This document shows positions 7,395 to 32,605 of a DNA stretch of 64,000 nucleotides, in pieces (within the stretch, counting starts at the first letter, position 1; each line of letters opens with the position of its first letter). This stretch comes from a virus. The DNA lies in the IMG/VR virus record IMGVR_UViG_3300005077_000003, positions 32,001 through 96,000 of that record. One strand, written 5' to 3'. The position numbers and the translations under genes are program-made. The notes beneath the pieces were generated by a model that was not told the origin of the DNA, ran no database searches, and saw only the letters and a list, made by a program, of their open reading frames with translations.

Positions 7395-8180
7395 TTAGTT
7401 TCTATAGTAGATTATTTCTCCCTTCAGTGTTGCATGTGAAGCGTAATATACTTCAGTCAACCCAATAATTGATGCAGTAAATGCTGTCCAGCCTTGACAA
7501 TCCAATTGCAGTCTAATGGTTGGAGTGGTAACACTTACTTGTATTGGTTCTCCATATACAAATGGATCACTACCTTGAACATCATGGTGACTTCCACCGC
7601 TAGTTCCTTTGTAGTCTTTTACTCCATCAGCTGGTGTATAAGGAAATACATTTTCGCTATTGTAGGCATATGCAATTTTGCCATATGATCTGGCTGCATC
7701 TACCAACTGATATGTGGTATTCCCTACTACCATAGATAGCGTACAATCCCAATGATTGTCAGAGATTTCATCTAGGTCATCTCTGTCAGGCCAATGTTTA
7801 TTATTATGATTTGGCCAATACCATCCTGCTGCTAGCTTTCCTTTAGCGTAAGTATCATAGTTCATATACTCAATGCCAATAAACCAGTCTACCTCTAGAT
7901 CTACACCAGCTTGTAAGCTAGTATAAGTTCCCCATTCTGGTTTAAAACCTGGAAAGACTAGTGTTGTAGGAAAACAACAAGATGCTGGATCATGTACAAT
8001 AAATGGGATTACTACTTTAGTTGGATCAGACAAGTCTGGAGTACCAATTTCTACATTTTCATTACTCCATTCTTTATTACTTTGTAATTGAATAATTTCA
8101 GACTCTACTCTTGGTAGAATAGAAAAATATGTTTTTGTGTTAACTAAAGGTAGTACAGTAAGTAGGCTTAAAAAAATCAT
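7395..8180 (-). CDS. secreted/surface protein, choice-of-anchor E-like (paralogue of 3903-4595)
   Basis: Hydrophobic N-terminus; PYTPADGVKDYKGTSGG parallels PYDGVTDYDGS..SGG. Confidence 0.55.
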   Translation of the reverse strand: MIFLSLLTVLPLVNTKTYFSILPRVESEIIQLQSNKEWSNENVEIGTPDLSDPTKVVIPFIVHDPASCCFPTTLVFPGFKPEWGTYTSLQAGVDLEVDWFIGIEYMNYDTYAKGKLAAGWYWPNHNNKHWPDRDDLDEISDNHWDCTLSMVVGNTTYQLVDAARSYGKIAYAYNSENVFPYTPADGVKDYKGTSGGSHHDVQGSDPFVYGEPIQVSVTTPTIRLQLDCQGWTAFTASIIGLTEVYYASHATLKGEIIYYRN

Positions 8181-8224
8181 TTTATTTTTTTTCTATGGGT
8201 AAATTCATAGGTGTAACTTATGAT

Positions 8225-8520
8225 GATATGCTGGTTTTATGCAGTAAAACCAGCAAAACTGCTTGGTTGATTTTTAATGTAAGTGACCCAGACGAACACC
8301 AAGAAACTTGGGTTTTACAATAGTAGGGATGAAGTTAACTTCAACCTACGCTGGAACTCTAGAAGTGGAATAGTGTATCGTTTAGGGGCTATTCCTACCC
8401 GCCGTACATATTGTACGATCTTTCTTATACCACAACTTCTAGAGTTATTTGGCGGCAGCCTTAGCTGATGGTAACACTGTTATGATGACCATGGAATATA
8501 ACTATCTAAATACCATCAGC
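8225..8520 (-). ncRNA. cluster of stable hairpins in non-coding DNA
   Basis: tgctggtttt/aaaaccagca, actctagaagt/acttctagagt and gctgatggta/taccatcagc stems; no credible ORF. Confidence 0.4.
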
Positions 8521-8529
8521 CTTATACAG

Positions 8530-8800
8530 GCTAGCATGGTCTAGGGCTGCCCACCTGTGCTAATTGGTAGGACCCGCTACGTCAGCGCACTGACACCGGG
8601 GCTTAGGGATTTTGCTGCATCCCTGCTGCGGCCGAACCTACCTCACCCTCCTAGTTATCCCTAATTCTAGGTTTAATGGCTGTTAGGGCAGCCTCCCCGT
8701 TGTTCACCCAGCAGGGATCTGGGAAGTTGAGAAGATACTAGCCTTATCCATCCTCTTGTGGACTAGTTCATCAAGAGGCCTCGCTCTCAACTGTGTCATT
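8530..8800 (-). ncRNA. multibranch structured RNA of unknown class
   Basis: Nested stems ggctgccc(8545-8552)/gggcagcc(8686-8693), ggtagg/cctacc, ccgc/gcgg, agggat/atccct, gtcag/ctgac, agttgaga/tctcaact, cctcttg/caagagg. Confidence 0.55.
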
Positions 8801-8809
8801 AGATGTAAA

Positions 8810-9705
8810 GTAGGCTGAGACTACACCTACTAACTGACCGGTCTTGGTGCCCGTATGATTATAACTTAGGCCTTATCCACCAACCTATGTTGGTATCCAG
8901 TCACAGCAGCCTTTTTGAATAGGTGGCGGTTCCTATGTGCTGTCAAACTACTCAATAGCTTTCATTAAGCCAACGCTGCCGCGCTGTTCGTATTGCTACC
9001 TACTACTCGCTGTCCACTATCAACACAATCATCCTTCCGGGAATCATGTGCCTGTATTCATCCGAAGATGTACAGGATTATGCTGCTTTCGCTTGACATC
9101 CGGCCAGGTTTGTGGTTTCTTCTAGTTTGTAGGCAGGACTCGAACCTGCAACCTATCGTTCCTAAAACGACTGAGCTACCAATTGCTCCACTACGTTTAC
9201 GTGAAGACCCCCTGGCCGAATGGTTCCTATATCTTTTGGATATAGAAATGCCAAGGATCTTCTAATGGCTACCTATTAGCTATAGGTTTAACCGGTTAGT
9301 ATGGACTTTGTCTCCGACTTCATAAAATCCACCGGAACCAAAGCACCAAGTAACTGCACTTCGCCTTTTGTTGCTATCCTTCAGACTCTGTGCTACCCTT
9401 TGTCTCTCATATATTCACTAGTTTGCATCCTATCCTCCTTGCGGGAGGAAATTGACCTGATCACCGTTGGCCACAGGCACTTGTCGGCTAGCGTCATATT
9501 TATTCACCCCAGGAGGGTAAACTAGGAGACTCGGCTTGCATGAATGGACCAAAATTAATTGGCGGGTTCCTCGTAACGCAGAATCCCTTTGGGCATATTA
9601 CTATGCTTGTCCTTAGCGACATCATGCTGCCGTACACTTACTCGCATAAGTGAGTAGTGTACTAGTTGTCAAAGAGTTTATTCACGCTCTCTCTTTGAGA
9701 GCTTA
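8810..9705 (-). ncRNA. large (~900 nt) structured ncRNA, GOLLD-like candidate
   Basis: No credible ORF, elevated GC, many stems (cctccc-GCAA-ggagg, acact..aagtgt, closing gtagg...cctac hairpin), tRNA-like insert, size and phage tRNA-region context. Confidence 0.55.
9125..9197 (-). tRNA. tRNA-like element (UAG anticodon), broken acceptor stem, no CCA; probably not a chargeable tRNA
   Basis: GAGC/GCTC D-arm, GTCGT-TTTAGGA-ACGAT anticodon arm, GCAGG-TTCGAGT-CCTGC T-arm; only 4 bp (GTAG/CTAC) of acceptor stem. Confidence 0.6.
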
Positions 9706-9752
9706 ATTGAAAAAAGAATTTTCTTTAGTGAATATCGTTCTATTTCCCACTC

Positions 9753-9929
9753 TTATTTAAGTTCTAATACTTCTTGACCTTCCCAAAAATCATTTTCATA
9801 TGAATCCTCCCATATGTCCACAATCTTTGTCCCTATATCATCCTTTTCTTCAAGAAGTTCAATTCGTTCACGTTCTAGGATAGCCTTAATAATACTATTG
9901 CGTAAGGTTGCTCTGCGATTAGTATCCAT
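9753..9929 (-). CDS. small acidic hypothetical protein (58 aa, below ORF-track cutoff)
   Basis: MDTNRRATLRNSIIKAILERERIELLEEKDD...; co-oriented with neighbours. Confidence 0.55.
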   Translation of the reverse strand: MDTNRRATLRNSIIKAILERERIELLEEKDDIGTKIVDIWEDSYENDFWEGQEVLELK

Positions 9930-9942
9930 TTTTAAATACTAC

Positions 9943-10221
9943 TTAAGAATTAAATACTTGTACTTTAATTAGTTTAGGAAAGCAAGTGTGTGAGAGCCAC
10001 TGCCAACCAGCAGACATATTAATGTCTTCGATTGGTTCAGCTGGTTCAACTATATTATTCATTACTTTTAGGGCTTCTGCCCTTTGTTTTTCATTCAGAT
10101 CCTTACATAGGATTTCTAGTTGTTTTACTACTCCTTCCCTAGTTGGCTTACCAAGAGTTCTTACTATCACATTCCCAGTACTAATAGGAATTGTAGTAAC
10201 AAATTGTAGTTTGTAAGTCAT
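9943..10221 (-). CDS. hypothetical protein
   Basis: 92-aa ORF, overlapping stop/start with upstream gene. Confidence 0.6.
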   Translation of the reverse strand: MTYKLQFVTTIPISTGNVIVRTLGKPTREGVVKQLEILCKDLNEKQRAEALKVMNNIVEPAEPIEDINMSAGWQWLSHTCFPKLIKVQVFNS

Positions 10222-10454
10222 TTCCTCTTCCTTTTATCTAAGTACAGTCTTACAAGTTGTTCAATAGTATATTGATCATTTTTATTGTTTATTACAGTAT
10301 AAAATATTTCTATTGCCTGAAATGCGGTAATGGGAGCTATTATAAGAAAATAAATACCAACAAATATTGTAGTAATACTATGAATTATTGCTATAATAAA
10401 TAATATAGCAATAAATATAGTATCAATCAGGAGTTTTTTCACCTTTTTTAGCAT
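10218..10454 (-). CDS. membrane protein
   Basis: Long hydrophobic stretch. Confidence 0.55.
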   Translation of the reverse strand: MLKKVKKLLIDTIFIAILFIIAIIHSITTIFVGIYFLIIAPITAFQAIEIFYTVINNKNDQYTIEQLVRLYLDKRKRK

Positions 10455-10608
10455 CGTCTTCTAACCAATTTAAGCGCATATTAATGTGATTAATGTCCAT
10501 TTTTACTTGTTTTAAGTCTTCTACAAGTTTTAACACATCAGCAAACAATTTAGAATGTGCTTCTACTTGTTTATCAAACCTAAATTCAAGCCTTTCTAGT
10601 TGTTCCAT
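10423..10608 (-). CDS. small coiled-coil protein
   Basis: Heptad-like pattern, 61 aa. Confidence 0.55.
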   Translation of the reverse strand: MEQLERLEFRFDKQVEAHSKLFADVLKLVEDLKQVKMDINHINMRLNWLEDDAKKGEKTPD

Positions 10609-10654
10609 ATTAGGGCGAGGTGCCTTTGTAGATAGTAAAAAAGTTGCTATTACA

Positions 10655-10771
10655 TTATCTTAGTAGCAGTACATCTACTATATTTAGTAGGCATCGTGTT
10701 TCTGTTAGATCTGGATGGCGTAATCGGTAAATTGTAAACAATACGCCGATGTAGATAATAATGGCCATCAT
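10655..10771 (-). CDS. small membrane peptide (38 aa)
   Basis: MMAIIIYIGVLFTIYRLRHPDLTETRCLLNIVDVLLLR by manual translation. Confidence 0.5.
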   Translation of the reverse strand: MMAIIIYIGVLFTIYRLRHPDLTETRCLLNIVDVLLLR

Positions 10772-10808
10772 AAGCTATGTTATCAAATCACGTTTTTTCA
10801 TTATATTG

Positions 10809-11174
10809 TTACCAGCTTACCTGGCCCAATAAACTTTCAGCTTCTGGCGAGTACATATACCTAAGTCCAAGAAGCAGGACAGATAGTACTGTTGCTTGAG
10901 TTACTGTACACATAAATGCTGTGGGTCCAGGACCCAAAAGCATTGAGAACATGACGAAAAGTAGTGCAGTCAGCGCAATGTCAGCTGCTAGCATATGTTT
11001 CGCCATCAGTCTTTTTAACCATACTGGGAACTTGTTGACCAGGAACCACAGGGCCATTGTTGACACCAGGCCCATAAACATTCCTGCCTGGATAAAGCCC
11101 CCAACAACAGTTGCGAAAAGGAGCGAAGCTCCAATTACAACAGGGAAACTATTCTTTAGCAGTAGTTCTTTCAT
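10809..11174 (-). CDS. multi-pass membrane protein
   Basis: About 4 hydrophobic segments, GGAGG RBS. Confidence 0.75.
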   Translation of the reverse strand: MKELLLKNSFPVVIGASLLFATVVGGFIQAGMFMGLVSTMALWFLVNKFPVWLKRLMAKHMLAADIALTALLFVMFSMLLGPGPTAFMCTVTQATVLSVLLLGLRYMYSPEAESLLGQVSW

Positions 11175-11376
11175 TTTCCTCCGTTCACTTGAAAATAAAA
11201 GTAGCCTTCTACTTTTACGCAGAAGGCTACTGTGTAGGCTGGCGTCTTTTATGCTATTCTCTACACCTACCGATAGAGGCTAACAGGGTGTTGATTGCTT
11301 ATGTCAGCACGCCAATGACCTAATGCTACCGTATTTTGGTAGCATTAGGTCACAGGAAAAAAGAATGGTGGACAGA

Positions 11377-12057
11377 CTATTCTTCGAGTTTGTCCATCTT
11401 TTGGTTGGCAGCATTGCTGCTGCCAGTCACTTTCAGGTTAGTCCAGAAAGCGGTCTCGGAGTCTGGCGAACCAGACGGAGACAAGATGACCAGCATGCGC
11501 CCCGCACTATAGCGGGGTTTGCTGTCGCCAAAGAAGTCCTGATCAAACCCTTGAGTAGAGGGTATCTCAAGGATCGCTTGGAGAACCTGGTTGGTCTCAG
11601 CGTTGCACATCTCGATTGCCTCACTAAAGGCAATCGCGGGAACGCGCGCATCTCGGAGCTGCTGGGCAAGCTTTTGGGCGTGGACGCCACGTTTCAGCTC
11701 AACGAGCGGAATAGACCACCAAGTTCCTCGTTCGCGTTTAACAGGATTTAATGTGGCAACGTCAATATTGCGCATGCCGTCTCTAGTCATCTTGTTGATA
11801 GACAAGCTACCAACAAGTTTTTGGTCATCACCAATGATTTTGGCTGCTTCATTCAGCAGCCTGACACGCCGTGTGGACATGAAGATATTAATACCTTCAT
11901 GCCCTTCCGCAGCTATCTGGGGAGCGGACTTGGAGAAGTAAGCTTCGAAGGTCTTTGCGATCTTATCAACAACGTTCATCAGAGGTTCTTGGTTAAGAGT
12001 TTTGGAAGAGCGACCAAAGCCGCTCAAGAAAGTCGCAACAGAAAAGGGAATTTTCAA
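11377..12057 (-). CDS. hypothetical protein
   Basis: 226-aa ORF in the minus-strand run. Confidence 0.75.
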   Translation of the reverse strand: MKIPFSVATFLSGFGRSSKTLNQEPLMNVVDKIAKTFEAYFSKSAPQIAAEGHEGINIFMSTRRVRLLNEAAKIIGDDQKLVGSLSINKMTRDGMRNIDVATLNPVKRERGTWWSIPLVELKRGVHAQKLAQQLRDARVPAIAFSEAIEMCNAETNQVLQAILEIPSTQGFDQDFFGDSKPRYSAGRMLVILSPSGSPDSETAFWTNLKVTGSSNAANQKMDKLEE

Positions 12058-12063
12058 GGTAAT

Positions 12064-12297
12064 TCATTCAAGGTACACAGGTCCAAAGTTGCTAAAGAAC
12101 TCAGGATCAATTAGGCTATTTAGCCATTTGTATCCCTTGCTAACTGCGAGCTTATTTGTGAAAATATCAAAATATCTCTTGATATAGTGATAGTCATCTT
12201 CATATGATTCACATAGAAGCTCCCATGCGGTCATTGGATCATTTGCAATTACGATGATTGCTTGACCGTCGTTTCTATTGAAGGCAAATCTTTTCAT
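12064..12297 (-). CDS. hypothetical protein
   Basis: 77-aa ORF abutting the upstream stop. Confidence 0.65.
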   Translation of the reverse strand: MKRFAFNRNDGQAIIVIANDPMTAWELLCESYEDDYHYIKRYFDIFTNKLAVSKGYKWLNSLIDPEFFSNFGPVYLE

Positions 12298-13782
12298 TTA
12301 TATCCTGCTATAGCCTACTGTTGTTTGTGGAATTGCTTCCCCGACAATGTCACAAAACAACACTATTTGGACATTCTCACGCTGTTCTTGTTTGGGGAAT
12401 CTTATCATGAATGAGCCAGGAGGGATATTGACTACCCAGTAAGCTTGGCGCACATAGTGTACTTTTTCGCCTACTACTTTCCAGCCCCAGTTAACACCTG
12501 TCCAGAATGGCTCTTTTTCCTGTGCAGTTTCCGACTTTATACACGTTTTCACTGTTCCTTTAGCAACCTTGCTAAGGAACGTGCTCACTAACGTGCTACC
12601 AAACGACGGACAATAGCAATATTTCCCTTGTGGATGGTATTCTTTACCCTTTTCGGGTGAAAGCTGATAGCTTCCCACGAACGGAATACCTCCACTAACG
12701 AACTTCTTGAAGATATGTCCGTTGACTGCTTCTTCTTTGAACTCCTGTTTGGGAGTCCACCATCTGTCAACAAATAGTGGATGGTTCCCGTCAAACAAGA
12801 TACCCACCCTGGGGTACCAGGCACCTGCTCTATTGTACATAATAGGTAGATACTTTTTTTTCTCGGGTATCACATCAAAATCATCAATATCAACTCCGCT
12901 GAGTTGGTATTGGATTCTGCTAATCAGGGGTGAAATGTACCATTCGCCCTCTGATTTATGAATTGAAACAATGTTGCGGTCTCGCATCCAACGAAGTGTT
13001 GGAACGAGTATTGCATTTACTGGGTGGGCTTCCTTGTCATACATCTTCCACTCACCTGTCAGAAAGTCAAGCTTTCTGAGTGGGAGTGACGAAAGAGCTG
13101 TTTTCGGTTTACCCTTTTCCAGATCCTCTTCCTGGTTCCGCCATAACCAAAAGAGGATCTGTTCCACATTGGGGCCAAAGCCTTTCTTGGGGATTATAAC
13201 ATCACAAATGGATGTAACCCTGTAAACATTGGCGGTTTCTGCCCCATATGGCTCATCGTTGTTCCAGGTGTTTACTGGAGTGTTAGGATACAATGCTTGT
13301 CGCATTATACTGATTTCATAATTGGCTTCCGTGGCAACAAGCTGCCATCCGTCCTTAAATCTATGGAATTCTCCATAGTACTCAGGACCATTTGGTACTA
13401 CAGAGTTTTCACCCAACTCTGTAAAGACAACAGACTGGCTGGTAATATCCCAGCAGTCGTCTTGTTTGCCACCATCAATGAATGGCAATTTATCCTTATC
13501 AAGAACCCAAATGGCTTGTTTTAGCAGCCTAAGAAGAGCGTTGGCTGCTCGGAGTTCTTCTCCCCATTTCAACAAAGACGCCAAATCCTCTGCTGCTACA
13601 ACGATTTCTTCAATCGTTGTAGCCCATTGCTTAGCCGCAGAGTATTTGGCGGCAATGTTTTCGATGCACGCGTACTCGCGCCCAACGACATCCTTGACTA
13701 GATTGATTTCAATGGCTTCTTGTTCTTTACGCTCAGCTACTTCCTCATCAAAGAACACGATTTCCTCCGCCGCATCGAACAT
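12298..13782 (-). CDS. hypothetical protein (494 aa)
   Basis: Long ORF with GGAG RBS; no family recognised. Confidence 0.85.
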   Translation of the reverse strand: MFDAAEEIVFFDEEVAERKEQEAIEINLVKDVVGREYACIENIAAKYSAAKQWATTIEEIVVAAEDLASLLKWGEELRAANALLRLLKQAIWVLDKDKLPFIDGGKQDDCWDITSQSVVFTELGENSVVPNGPEYYGEFHRFKDGWQLVATEANYEISIMRQALYPNTPVNTWNNDEPYGAETANVYRVTSICDVIIPKKGFGPNVEQILFWLWRNQEEDLEKGKPKTALSSLPLRKLDFLTGEWKMYDKEAHPVNAILVPTLRWMRDRNIVSIHKSEGEWYISPLISRIQYQLSGVDIDDFDVIPEKKKYLPIMYNRAGAWYPRVGILFDGNHPLFVDRWWTPKQEFKEEAVNGHIFKKFVSGGIPFVGSYQLSPEKGKEYHPQGKYCYCPSFGSTLVSTFLSKVAKGTVKTCIKSETAQEKEPFWTGVNWGWKVVGEKVHYVRQAYWVVNIPPGSFMIRFPKQEQRENVQIVLFCDIVGEAIPQTTVGYSRI

Positions 13783-30364: not shown

Positions 30365-32605
30365 ATGAGTATACTAGACTTTATTAGGGGAACATCTCAC
30401 TCTGCACAAATAGAGGAACTCCGTAAGCGCGTTGAGCTTCAGGTGGCAGAATTAGAGGACGTAAGAGCGCGCCTTGCTAATACTAATGAAAGAAGTAACA
30501 AACTAGAAGAGTACCTAAGAACAAGAAGAACTAATTTACCAAAACCAATACAATATTCTTCTAGGAATATATTATCTGGTGGCGATAGACGCAACCATGC
30601 GCCATTTGAAGGGCCTATATACGACCTAAGTGAAATAGCTAGAGCACTAGACGTAGAGGCATACATAGCTACATCAGTCAGGAAACATAGAGAACAAATA
30701 CTAAAAGAGGGCTTTACTATTACTGGGCAAACTCAAGAAACAATAGACTATATAAACAAAAGACTATTTGAGTTTTCTCTAGTAACTGGATTATCTTTTG
30801 ACGAAGTTGTTCGTGAATATACTACCAATTTGGTTCAGTATGCAACTAGCTTTATAGTAAAGCAGAGAGATGATGAAGCTAGCTCTGGTAAAAGGCATAG
30901 ATGGGGAGGTAAAGAATTATCTCCAATCGCAGGGATATTCCCTATGGATCCATCTACAGTTGGAGCACAACAGAATCAACTAGGCCACGTTGCTAATTGG
31001 ATGCAAAAAGTATTAGATCCAGTAACGGGTCAGCCTACGGAAAAAAAATACAAAAAAGAAGATATTGTAGTAGCTACTATAGATAAGAAATCAGGGTTTG
31101 TGTTCGGTACTCCATATATATTGCCAGTTCTAGATGACGTGAGAACGCTAAGGCGTATTGAAGAGATATCTGAAATAGTAGCTCAAAGACACGCATTCCC
31201 TTGGGTACACTGGAGAGTTGGAAGCGACGACAGGCCTGCTGATATATTTGAAGATGGTACTGGCGAAGTTGATCTAGTAAGAGCTATAATAGAGACCACT
31301 CCCCCAGAAGGCGGGATAGTTACAGATCACAGAGTAGAATCTGAAGTTTTAGGAATGAAAGGAGAGGCGCTTGACCTTGTCCCATACTTAGAATATTATG
31401 AAAAACGGGTGATGGCTGGTTTGCGCCTCTCTTCTATTGATTTAGGAAGAACAGAAGGTTCCAAGAGTAATGCGGTAACGGTATCAGAAACATTACAAGA
31501 TGCGTCAAAAGACTTCCAAGCAGTCATAGCCAATTCTCTTAGTCATCAACTTTTTGTTCCTCTTCTATTAGAAGGCGGTTTTGATGTAAACATAGAAACT
31601 ATGGTTACATTAGAGTTTAAACTAATAAACAGAGAAGAAGAGAGAGCACGTATTTCTCATGGCCAAGACCTATTTTTAGGCGGATCAATAACTCGTAATG
31701 AGTTCCGTAGAGATTACATTAACAAGAAAGATATGTCAGAAGAAGAAGACGCTGATACACTAATAGGGCGTAAAGAGCGTCATGACATGGAACTAGCTAA
31801 GTTGCAAGCAGCCGCTAAAGCGGCTCAGCAGGCAGCTACTGCAGCCAAAAATAAAACTGGAAATAAAACCAGGCCAAAGAATCAATATGGGCAAAAGCCT
31901 GCAAAAACAAGAGTAAAAGCAAATGACTCTAATAAAGAGATATATTTAACCAGCCTAATAGATCAATGGAAAAATACACAATCACTATTAATTGATTATG
32001 TTAAAAAATACTCTGGAGTTGTAGAAGATGATGGTTCTGATAATTTAGATGTTACTACTAGAGATATTGAGCTCACTTCTATATTAACAAGTTTTGTTAC
32101 TCTGTTTTCTGTTGACTCAAAATCATTATTGCTACCAATGATAATTGATGGCACTAAAAAGGCCGCAGATGACGCTTCTTGTGAAGAATATACTATAGCA
32201 AACAAACTTATTGATAGATTTATAAAAAATAATGTTACTAAATCACTAAATAAATTTATATCATCTGTAAAAGATGAAATACTATCCAACGATAGTATAG
32301 CTGGTATTCAAAACAAGGTTCACCCACAAACTGCGTTGGCGTCTATAGTAGACAATAGAATTGCCGATCTAGTTTTATTATCTTCTAAACACATAAATAT
32401 GGCGTTTAGATTTGGCTATGTAAAAGCAGCTCGCTCATATGGATATGACTCTGTAATACTCTCACCCATAGAAGAAGGCGCATGCGATGCCTGTATTGAA
32501 GCTGGAGATAAGGCTATTTCACTAACACAGAAAGATATACCATACAATATATTGCTTGATACTCATAGCACATGTAAATATGAAATATTTTTCAACGAAG
32601 AATAA
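30365..32605 (+). CDS. portal protein with C-terminal MuF/gpF-like extension
   Basis: Position, IFPMDPSTV and FGTPYILPVLDD portal-like motifs; C-terminal GY..A...CDAC...HSTC. Confidence 0.8.
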   Translation: MSILDFIRGTSHSAQIEELRKRVELQVAELEDVRARLANTNERSNKLEEYLRTRRTNLPKPIQYSSRNILSGGDRRNHAPFEGPIYDLSEIARALDVEAYIATSVRKHREQILKEGFTITGQTQETIDYINKRLFEFSLVTGLSFDEVVREYTTNLVQYATSFIVKQRDDEASSGKRHRWGGKELSPIAGIFPMDPSTVGAQQNQLGHVANWMQKVLDPVTGQPTEKKYKKEDIVVATIDKKSGFVFGTPYILPVLDDVRTLRRIEEISEIVAQRHAFPWVHWRVGSDDRPADIFEDGTGEVDLVRAIIETTPPEGGIVTDHRVESEVLGMKGEALDLVPYLEYYEKRVMAGLRLSSIDLGRTEGSKSNAVTVSETLQDASKDFQAVIANSLSHQLFVPLLLEGGFDVNIETMVTLEFKLINREEERARISHGQDLFLGGSITRNEFRRDYINKKDMSEEEDADTLIGRKERHDMELAKLQAAAKAAQQAATAAKNKTGNKTRPKNQYGQKPAKTRVKANDSNKEIYLTSLIDQWKNTQSLLIDYVKKYSGVVEDDGSDNLDVTTRDIELTSILTSFVTLFSVDSKSLLLPMIIDGTKKAADDASCEEYTIANKLIDRFIKNNVTKSLNKFISSVKDEILSNDSIAGIQNKVHPQTALASIVDNRIADLVLLSSKHINMAFRFGYVKAARSYGYDSVILSPIEEGACDACIEAGDKAISLTQKDIPYNILLDTHSTCKYEIFFNEE

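Follow-up and report, generated by a model that had tools for sequence, protein, structure and literature searches.

A divergent GOLLD RNA with a nested tRNA-like element on the minus strand of a 177.6-kb phage genome

The DNA analysed here is a 64-kb window (positions 32,001 to 96,000 of IMG/VR virus record IMGVR_UViG_3300005077_000003; coordinates below are those of the window). The host record is 177.6 kb long, has a GC content of 36.4% and is rated as 92% complete, and as an IMG/VR virus record it provides the phage or prophage location expected of a GOLLD RNA. Between the minus-strand ORFs 7395–8180 and 9753–9929 lies a GC-rich, ORF-free tract of about 1.4 kb (~8300–9700, GC 0.45–0.52), and the neighbouring ORFs are all on the minus strand. 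Pfam names one of ten neighbours, a 444-aa AAA ATPase, and a synteny search with the flanking proteins 7395–8180 and 12298–13782 found no relative among viral contigs; a distant-mode blastn search of 8200–9800 against phage sequences also returned no match. An earlier sequence-only reading of the window had singled out 8810–9705, which is the upstream two thirds of the GC-rich tract when read on the minus strand, as a giant structured RNA candidate with raised GC and no credible ORF over about 900 nt. Both observations are borne out. GC is 0.45–0.49 across 8600–9650, compared with 0.30–0.39 in the flanks and 0.364 in the genome, and the GC-rich tract is broader than the interval then proposed. 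The longest table-11 frames in 8810–9705 are 90, 74 and 62 aa on the plus strand and 40–45 aa on the minus strand, and no coherent frame was found in this interval when TGA was read as tryptophan and TAG as glutamine.

As shown in Table 1, the features recognised at this locus lie on the minus strand and are listed from 5′ to 3′ on that strand.

Table 1. Features of the GOLLD locus in window coordinates.
Feature	Position	Strand	Remarks
Hairpin GCUCUC-AAAGA-GAGAGC	9686–9702	−	Read from sequence; just upstream of the boxA-like motif
boxA-like motif CUCUUUGACAA	9666–9676	−	35 nt upstream of the 5′ core
GOLLD 5′ domain	9264–9670	−	Colinear with the 3′ domain; 5′ end approximate
Conserved 5′ core	9532–9631	−	Model R1, 52.7 bits, E ~2e-11, full model
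Loop motif GCCAACGGUGA, stem CCUG/CAGG	9461–9471	−	Common to 5′ domains of tRNA-bearing GOLLDs
Last 5′-domain hairpin	9267–9293	−	Two double-changed pairs in a relative's contig
GOLLD conserved 3′ domain	8812–9263	−	Rfam RF02032 positions 1–416 of 416, 150.8 bits
Nested tRNA-like element	9129–9194	−	Rfam tRNA, 50.7 bits; linker J13/15
Pseudoknot 5′ strand	9091–9100	−	9 of 10 pairs form with 8939–8948
Pseudoknot 3′ strand	8939–8948	−	Pairs with 9091–9100
3′-terminal hairpin GUAGG-UGUAGUCUCAG-CCUAC with invariant GUAGUCUCAGCC	8810–8830	−	End of the GOLLD model

The Rfam GOLLD model RF02032 represents the conserved 3′ domain only. It is matched once in the genome, with a score of 150.8 bits (E 3e-40) that clears the gathering score of 150 by 0.8 bit. 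This marginal score is normal, since GOLLDs of the tRNA-bearing subclass in viral contigs score 140–200 bits, compared with 200–320 bits for other members. When the alignment is rebuilt from the structure line of the model, 85 of the 96 modelled 3′-domain pairs are standard in this sequence. The sequence-only reading had taken the region for a GOLLD-like member and proposed searches with the Rfam GOLLD and ROOL models; the GOLLD search is positive over the full model, and a separate model of the 5′ core, described below, matches at the expected spacing, while ROOL gives no match at E ≤ 1. Within 8200–10000, no Rfam family, ROOL included, reaches E ≤ 1 except GOLLD, tRNA and one chance ctRNA match. 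The terminal hairpin holds the invariant GOLLD 3′ motif GUAnUCUCAGCC, which here takes the form GGUGUAGUCUCAGCCU at 8827–8812; the gtagg...cctac hairpin previously noticed at the end of the region is confirmed on the minus strand (8830 to 8810). The three short motifs singled out in the same reading all belong to the RNA: TCTCAGCC is the GOLLD 3′ end, TGCAAGCC falls within the 5′ core and GCCACCTATTC lies in a modelled 3′-domain hairpin. A self-complementary UUAUAA loop (~8855–8860) was considered as a cage contact and dropped, a relative's contig diverging there to a GGAAACCG-type loop.

For comparison, GOLLD loci were collected from viral contigs by two motif scans and checked with the Rfam model, which confirmed a GOLLD 3′ domain in 35 of 35 records from the first scan and in 39 of the 50 core-pattern records from the second. 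Thirty unique 5′ cores of other GOLLDs, with the window excluded, were used to build the covariance model R1, in whose alignment 10 of 14 predicted pairs covary with double changes. A search of both strands of the window (128 kb) with R1 returns a single match, the minus-strand core at 9532–9631. The order of elements in the core is a hairpin, GAyAAG, a GNRA hairpin (GCAUA-GUAA-UAUGC), AAAG, a hairpin, a GCC hairpin and GGUCCAUUCAUGCAAGCC, and its consensus end in GOLLD loci is GGTCmAyyyAdGCAAGcc. The distance from the end of the core to the start of the Rfam match is 271 nt here, compared with 252–310 nt in tRNA-bearing relatives; upstream, sequence homology in relatives begins about 25 nt before the core. 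In the middle of the 5′ domain, the pattern GCCRAYGGTGA has one match in the window against 0.06 expected. In 14 relatives this loop lies 165–186 nt from the 3′ domain, compared with 198 nt here, and the closing stem of the GCCAACGGUGA loop covaries. R2, a covariance model of the stem-GCCrAyGGUGA-stem block, gave no significant match and picked up the loop alone (7.4 bits, E 3.7); its MAFFT alignment had misplaced the closing stem. A sequence-only profile for the middle of the 5′ domain also had no match. The putative part of the 5′ domain beyond the core (9264–9531) is backed just by the shared loop motif and one covarying hairpin, with no model-level support for most of its length.

As the 5′ core and the 3′ domain stand in colinear order, the RNA spans about 9670 to 8812 on the minus strand, or roughly 860 nt, with an approximate 5′ end. 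The extent of about 900 nt given earlier (8810–9705) is right to about 35 nt at the 5′ end. That reading gave no strand; the strand is minus, and the RNA runs in the same direction as the phage genes around it, which form a minus-strand block. The free-energy z-score of the interval is about −3 and is similar for both strands; thermodynamics alone is therefore not the evidence, which lies in the covariance models and the compensatory changes. The RNA is a genuine GOLLD, a new and divergent representative of a family already known; it does not define a class of its own.

No close relative was found in the phage, viral-contig and metagenome collections, where the nearest GOLLD is L164, with 60% identity over 396 nt; an exact 27-mer and a loop-and-junction pattern each gave no hit among metagenome contigs or viral contigs. 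Contigs 88–95% identical to parts of the RNA are found in the RNA libraries of two rhizosphere studies. The contigs X1 and X2 cover 8865–9152, 9196–9417 and 9486–9567, and 8200–8864 and 9568–9800 are uninformative on the ends and on the downstream tract. In these relatives, six pairs are changed on both sides and remain paired, namely 9245:9227, 9240:9232, 9096:8943, 9095:8944, 9293:9267 and 9285:9273. Four of them are in the 3′ domain, including two adjacent pseudoknot pairs (9096:8943, U-A to C-G; 9095:8944, C-G to U-A), and two are in the last 5′-domain hairpin (9293:9267, G-C to A-U; 9285:9273, C-G to U-A). Two further pseudoknot pairs show a one-sided change with pairing kept. Among the one-sided changes of the 3′ domain, pairing is kept or gained in seven and lost in two; several are switches from G.U to A-U, which fit the minus strand only. 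Base pairing is preserved by compensatory change within the lineage of the present RNA. By analogy, the pseudoknot may be taken as the L20-J13/15 kissing contact described as bridge B7 of the env-38 cage (PMC12286853). The RNA-library contigs also hint at expression of the relatives, as assembled contigs that carry no strand or end information.

It has been reported that the J13/15 linker of GOLLD sometimes holds a tRNA (PMC12286853, PMC12990946). The nested element of the present RNA occupies slot ~64–141 of the 3′ domain, the same as the nested tRNAs of relatives, and matches the Rfam tRNA model at 50.7 bits against a cut-off of 29, over model positions 4–67 only. It folds as a cloverleaf with a class I body and complete D, anticodon and T arms; the anticodon loop is UUUAGGA, with anticodon UAG and U33 present, and the variable loop has 5 nt (AGGUU), without the long arm of class II. 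The acceptor stem has 4 bp, the 3′ flank reads AAACUAG and CCA is absent; ARAGORN calls the element at a relaxed threshold only and rejects it at the default one. Bacterial tRNA-Leu belongs to class II and has a long variable arm. Nested tRNAs with Ser and Leu anticodons in other GOLLDs (L071–L075, L150–L164) also do without it. Nested and free-standing tRNAs of the same phage loci were compared from ARAGORN structure strings: a 7-bp acceptor stem is found in none of 14 nested elements, which have 4–6 acceptor pairs, compared with 74 of 87 free tRNAs, and an encoded CCA in none of the 14 compared with 77 of the 87. From the 4-bp acceptor stem, the missing CCA, the Leu-type anticodon on a class I body and this nested-versus-free comparison, we infer that the tRNA-like module is probably a tethered mimic and not a working tRNA gene. 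Free tRNAs of the phage itself number three and are scattered (Arg-tct, Leu-caa, Met-cat). The nearest, Leu-caa, is 5.8 kb away, so the proximity to tRNA genes that the sequence-only reading associated with such RNAs fails here. Unlike most GOLLDs, this one has no tRNA island beside it; a tRNA array is usual in the family without being required.

Between near-identical relatives, the nested element changes much faster in its anticodon arm than the GOLLD scaffold does. A relative whose flanking 3′ domain is 95% identical to that of the present RNA has other bases at 5 of the 7 anticodon-loop positions (9153–9182 compared with X1). In near-identical GOLLD pairs, which are not independent of one another, about 32% of anticodon-arm positions differ, compared with a background of about 10%, and anticodons switch among UAU, UAG and CUU (L155/L157/L150/L156, L073/L074, and the window compared with X1). 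Two other nested elements have unusual features. The linker at L160:1568–1662 (+) holds an apparent circularly permuted tRNA, with the order T arm, 8-bp acceptor-like hairpin with ACCA in its loop, D arm and anticodon arm; the GOLLD chain would enter and exit it by the variable-loop side and not by the acceptor end. In L164 (G068), ARAGORN assigns the nested element a four-base anticodon (ttga).

Upstream of the RNA, the motif CUCUUUGACAA, a form of YTCTTTRAHAA, bears what we take to be a resemblance to the boxA of rRNA operons. Just 5′ of the 5′ domain, YTCTTTRAHAA occurs in sense orientation in 15 of 58 unique GOLLD loci and in antisense orientation in none. Its density is 0.95/kb in this upstream zone, 330–620 nt upstream of the 3′ domain (loci L042–L058, L148–L163), compared with 0.037/kb elsewhere in the loci, a 26-fold difference. 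The 177.6-kb genome is AT-rich and contains five other loose matches; CUCUUUGACAA is its only copy that is not made up of A and T alone. This enrichment suggests Nus-type antitermination for GOLLD transcription: a putative boxA-type signal at 9666–9676 may help transcription through the long untranslated RNA, and it is possible that GOLLD genes commonly use such a signal. A literature search found no paper linking GOLLD with boxA or antitermination. The hairpin at 9686–9702 could be a boxB-like element, or else the transcript end of an upstream 58-aa ORF; in the MFE fold, UCAAAGAG forms an alternative pairing with the boxA-like CUCUUUGA. Upstream of the GOLLD, no convincing sigma-70-type promoter was found, and the scan gave fewer sites than in shuffled sequences.

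Just 3′ of the GOLLD end, the minus-strand stretch 8320–8811 is ORF-free, has a GC content of 0.45–0.52 and is unique in the genome. It folds with a z-score of −2.8 on both strands, and 8515–8811 alone with −0.87. An Rfam search of 8181–8815 gave no match at E ≤ 10, and comparison with the sequence 3′ of 65 other GOLLDs revealed no similarity. The first terminator-like site 3′ of the GOLLD is a weak one at 8533–8517 (−); on this account the tract may be co-transcribed with the GOLLD RNA. A second GC-rich zone (GC up to 0.56) is seen at 10850–12100, with tangled overlapping ORFs of 121–226 aa on both strands. These ORFs have no Pfam match, 10400–12400 has no Rfam match at E ≤ 1, and the zone could be non-coding.

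The structures of two GOLLD RNAs provide the frame in which the present one can be read. The env-38 GOLLD is 833 nt long and forms a 14-mer cage (PDB: 9MEE); its 3′ domain is preceded by a 5′ domain that is less conserved and measures about 420 nt (Kretsch et al. 2025, PMC12286853). The present RNA resembles it in having a variable 5′ domain of about 400 nt followed by a conserved 3′ domain of about 410–450 nt, an L20-J13/15-type pseudoknot, a terminal GUAnUCUCAGCC hairpin, a linker at the position of the disordered linker, and a phage origin. However, the similarity between the two is too low for BLAST, and the linker of the present RNA carries a tRNA-like insert. The present 5′ domain has a core of the GGUCmAyyyAdGCAAG type, absent from the largest lake-type GOLLD cluster of the set. 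The GOLLD of Streptococcus agalactiae is 700 nt long and forms a 12-mer (PDB: 9L0R), and its 3′ domain a 10-mer (PDB: 9LMF) (PMC12990946). In this member of the same family, the 3′ domain can assemble alone and the 5′ domain sets the stoichiometry; it differs from the present RNA in being borne by a prophage or bacterial chromosome and in being shorter, and the stoichiometry of the present RNA is not predictable from sequence. Closer in one respect are the GOLLDs with a tRNA in J13/15 (the Mycolicibacterium GOLLD with tRNA-Phe, PMC12990946; L071–L075 and L150–L164), which have the insert in the same slot, with a short acceptor stem and no CCA; the present RNA differs from them in having the shortest acceptor stem (4 bp) and a phage without a tRNA array. 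ROOL (env-120 8-mer, PDB: 9MDS) is likewise a large, ornate, phage-associated RNA-only cage often found near tRNAs, but its sequence and fold are unrelated, and the present RNA is not a member.

By analogy with the env-38 14-mer and the S. agalactiae 12-mer, the RNA would self-assemble without protein into a closed, dihedral multimeric cage, with caps made of 5′ domains and rings made of 3′ domains. Chains would touch one another through kissing contacts of the pseudoknot strands, and the linker would be directed towards the cavity together with its tRNA-like module (cage and linker facts from PMC12286853 and PMC12990946), where the module probably stays tethered. Taking the locus as a whole, we regard it as highly probable that the best explanation is a full-length minus-strand GOLLD RNA of about 860 nt, which would form a cage predicted from homology and carry a tethered tRNA-like module.

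Other explanations differ from this one in the role of the nested element, in the extent of the transcript, or in the nature of the region. The nested element could be a real tRNA that is stored by the GOLLD and released later ("inhibited storage"), supplying the phage with a CUA-reading tRNA. Such storage has been suggested in print for the Mycolicibacterium GOLLD with tRNA-Phe (PMC12990946), and it would suit a tRNA body that is intact in its three arms and U33 and scores 50.7 bits, in a phage whose own tRNA-Leu carries the anticodon CAA and whose long ORFs use CUA for 23.5% of their Leu codons. However, an acceptor stem of 4 pairs, the absence of CCA, rejection by ARAGORN at default settings and a class I body where bacterial tRNA-Leu is generally known to be class II are hard to reconcile with a releasable tRNA, and a complete acceptor stem and CCA are both missing from all 14 nested elements, whereas 77 of the 87 free tRNAs in these phages have CCA encoded; storage is accordingly rather improbable. 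The truncated acceptor ends of the nested elements, the 5 of 7 loop differences, the excess of changes in the anticodon arm (32% against 10%) and the permuted element of L160 lead to a more specific proposal within the tethered-mimic reading, which we put forward tentatively and consider unlikely as it stands: neither a stored tRNA nor a relic, the module might serve to display an anticodon arm on which diversifying selection acts. As an uncharged and uncleavable mimic, it could be a bait or sponge for an anticodon-reading host factor, for instance an anticodon nuclease or an enzyme that modifies tRNA.

The GOLLD could also be part of a composite non-coding transcript of about 1.4 kb that runs through 8320–8811, its parts working together. 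The unbroken GC-rich, ORF-free zone over ~8300–9700, the lack of a terminator-like site before the weak one at 8533–8517 (−) and the fold z-score of −2.8 for 8320–8811 would fit such a transcript, but 8812 is where the GOLLD model stops, here as in every relative, the tract has neither an Rfam match at E ≤ 10 nor similarity to what lies 3′ of 65 other GOLLDs, 8515–8811 is shuffle-like (z = −0.87), and the z-score of the tract is the same on both strands, so that we give this transcript a low probability. A decaying, non-functional GOLLD relic might show the marginal Rfam score, the degenerate tRNA-like element and the missing tRNA island seen here; low scores and short acceptor stems, however, characterise the tRNA-bearing subclass as a whole, the two domains are complete and in colinear order, 85 of 96 pairs are intact, and the changes in relatives are compensatory, those in the pseudoknot, which would be an inter-chain contact, included. 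Decay is therefore very unlikely. Finally, the short plus-strand frames of 62–90 aa and the similar z-score of the plus strand could be read as signs of a protein-coding region or of a plus-strand RNA, a reading with next to no probability given that the two covariance models have their matches on the minus strand alone, that G.U pairs and G.U/A-U switches are consistent with that strand only, and that altered codes yield no long frame.

For the full-length GOLLD RNA preferred here, our favoured guess is a role connected with tRNA or translation in lytic growth, with the displayed anticodon arm as its specific part. If the displayed-arm reading is true, the cages would carry many copies of the mimic, with an anticodon loop that is quickly swapped between near-identical phages. 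With this locus the known family gains a divergent member whose lineage has relatives in rhizosphere samples. The presence of a GOLLD in a phage without a tRNA island weakens the presumed association of GOLLD with tRNA arrays. Of greater use than the single new member may be the comparative by-products: the truncation of nested tRNAs, the fast anticodon arms and the 26-fold enrichment of boxA-like motifs are testable handles on the role of the GOLLD cage.
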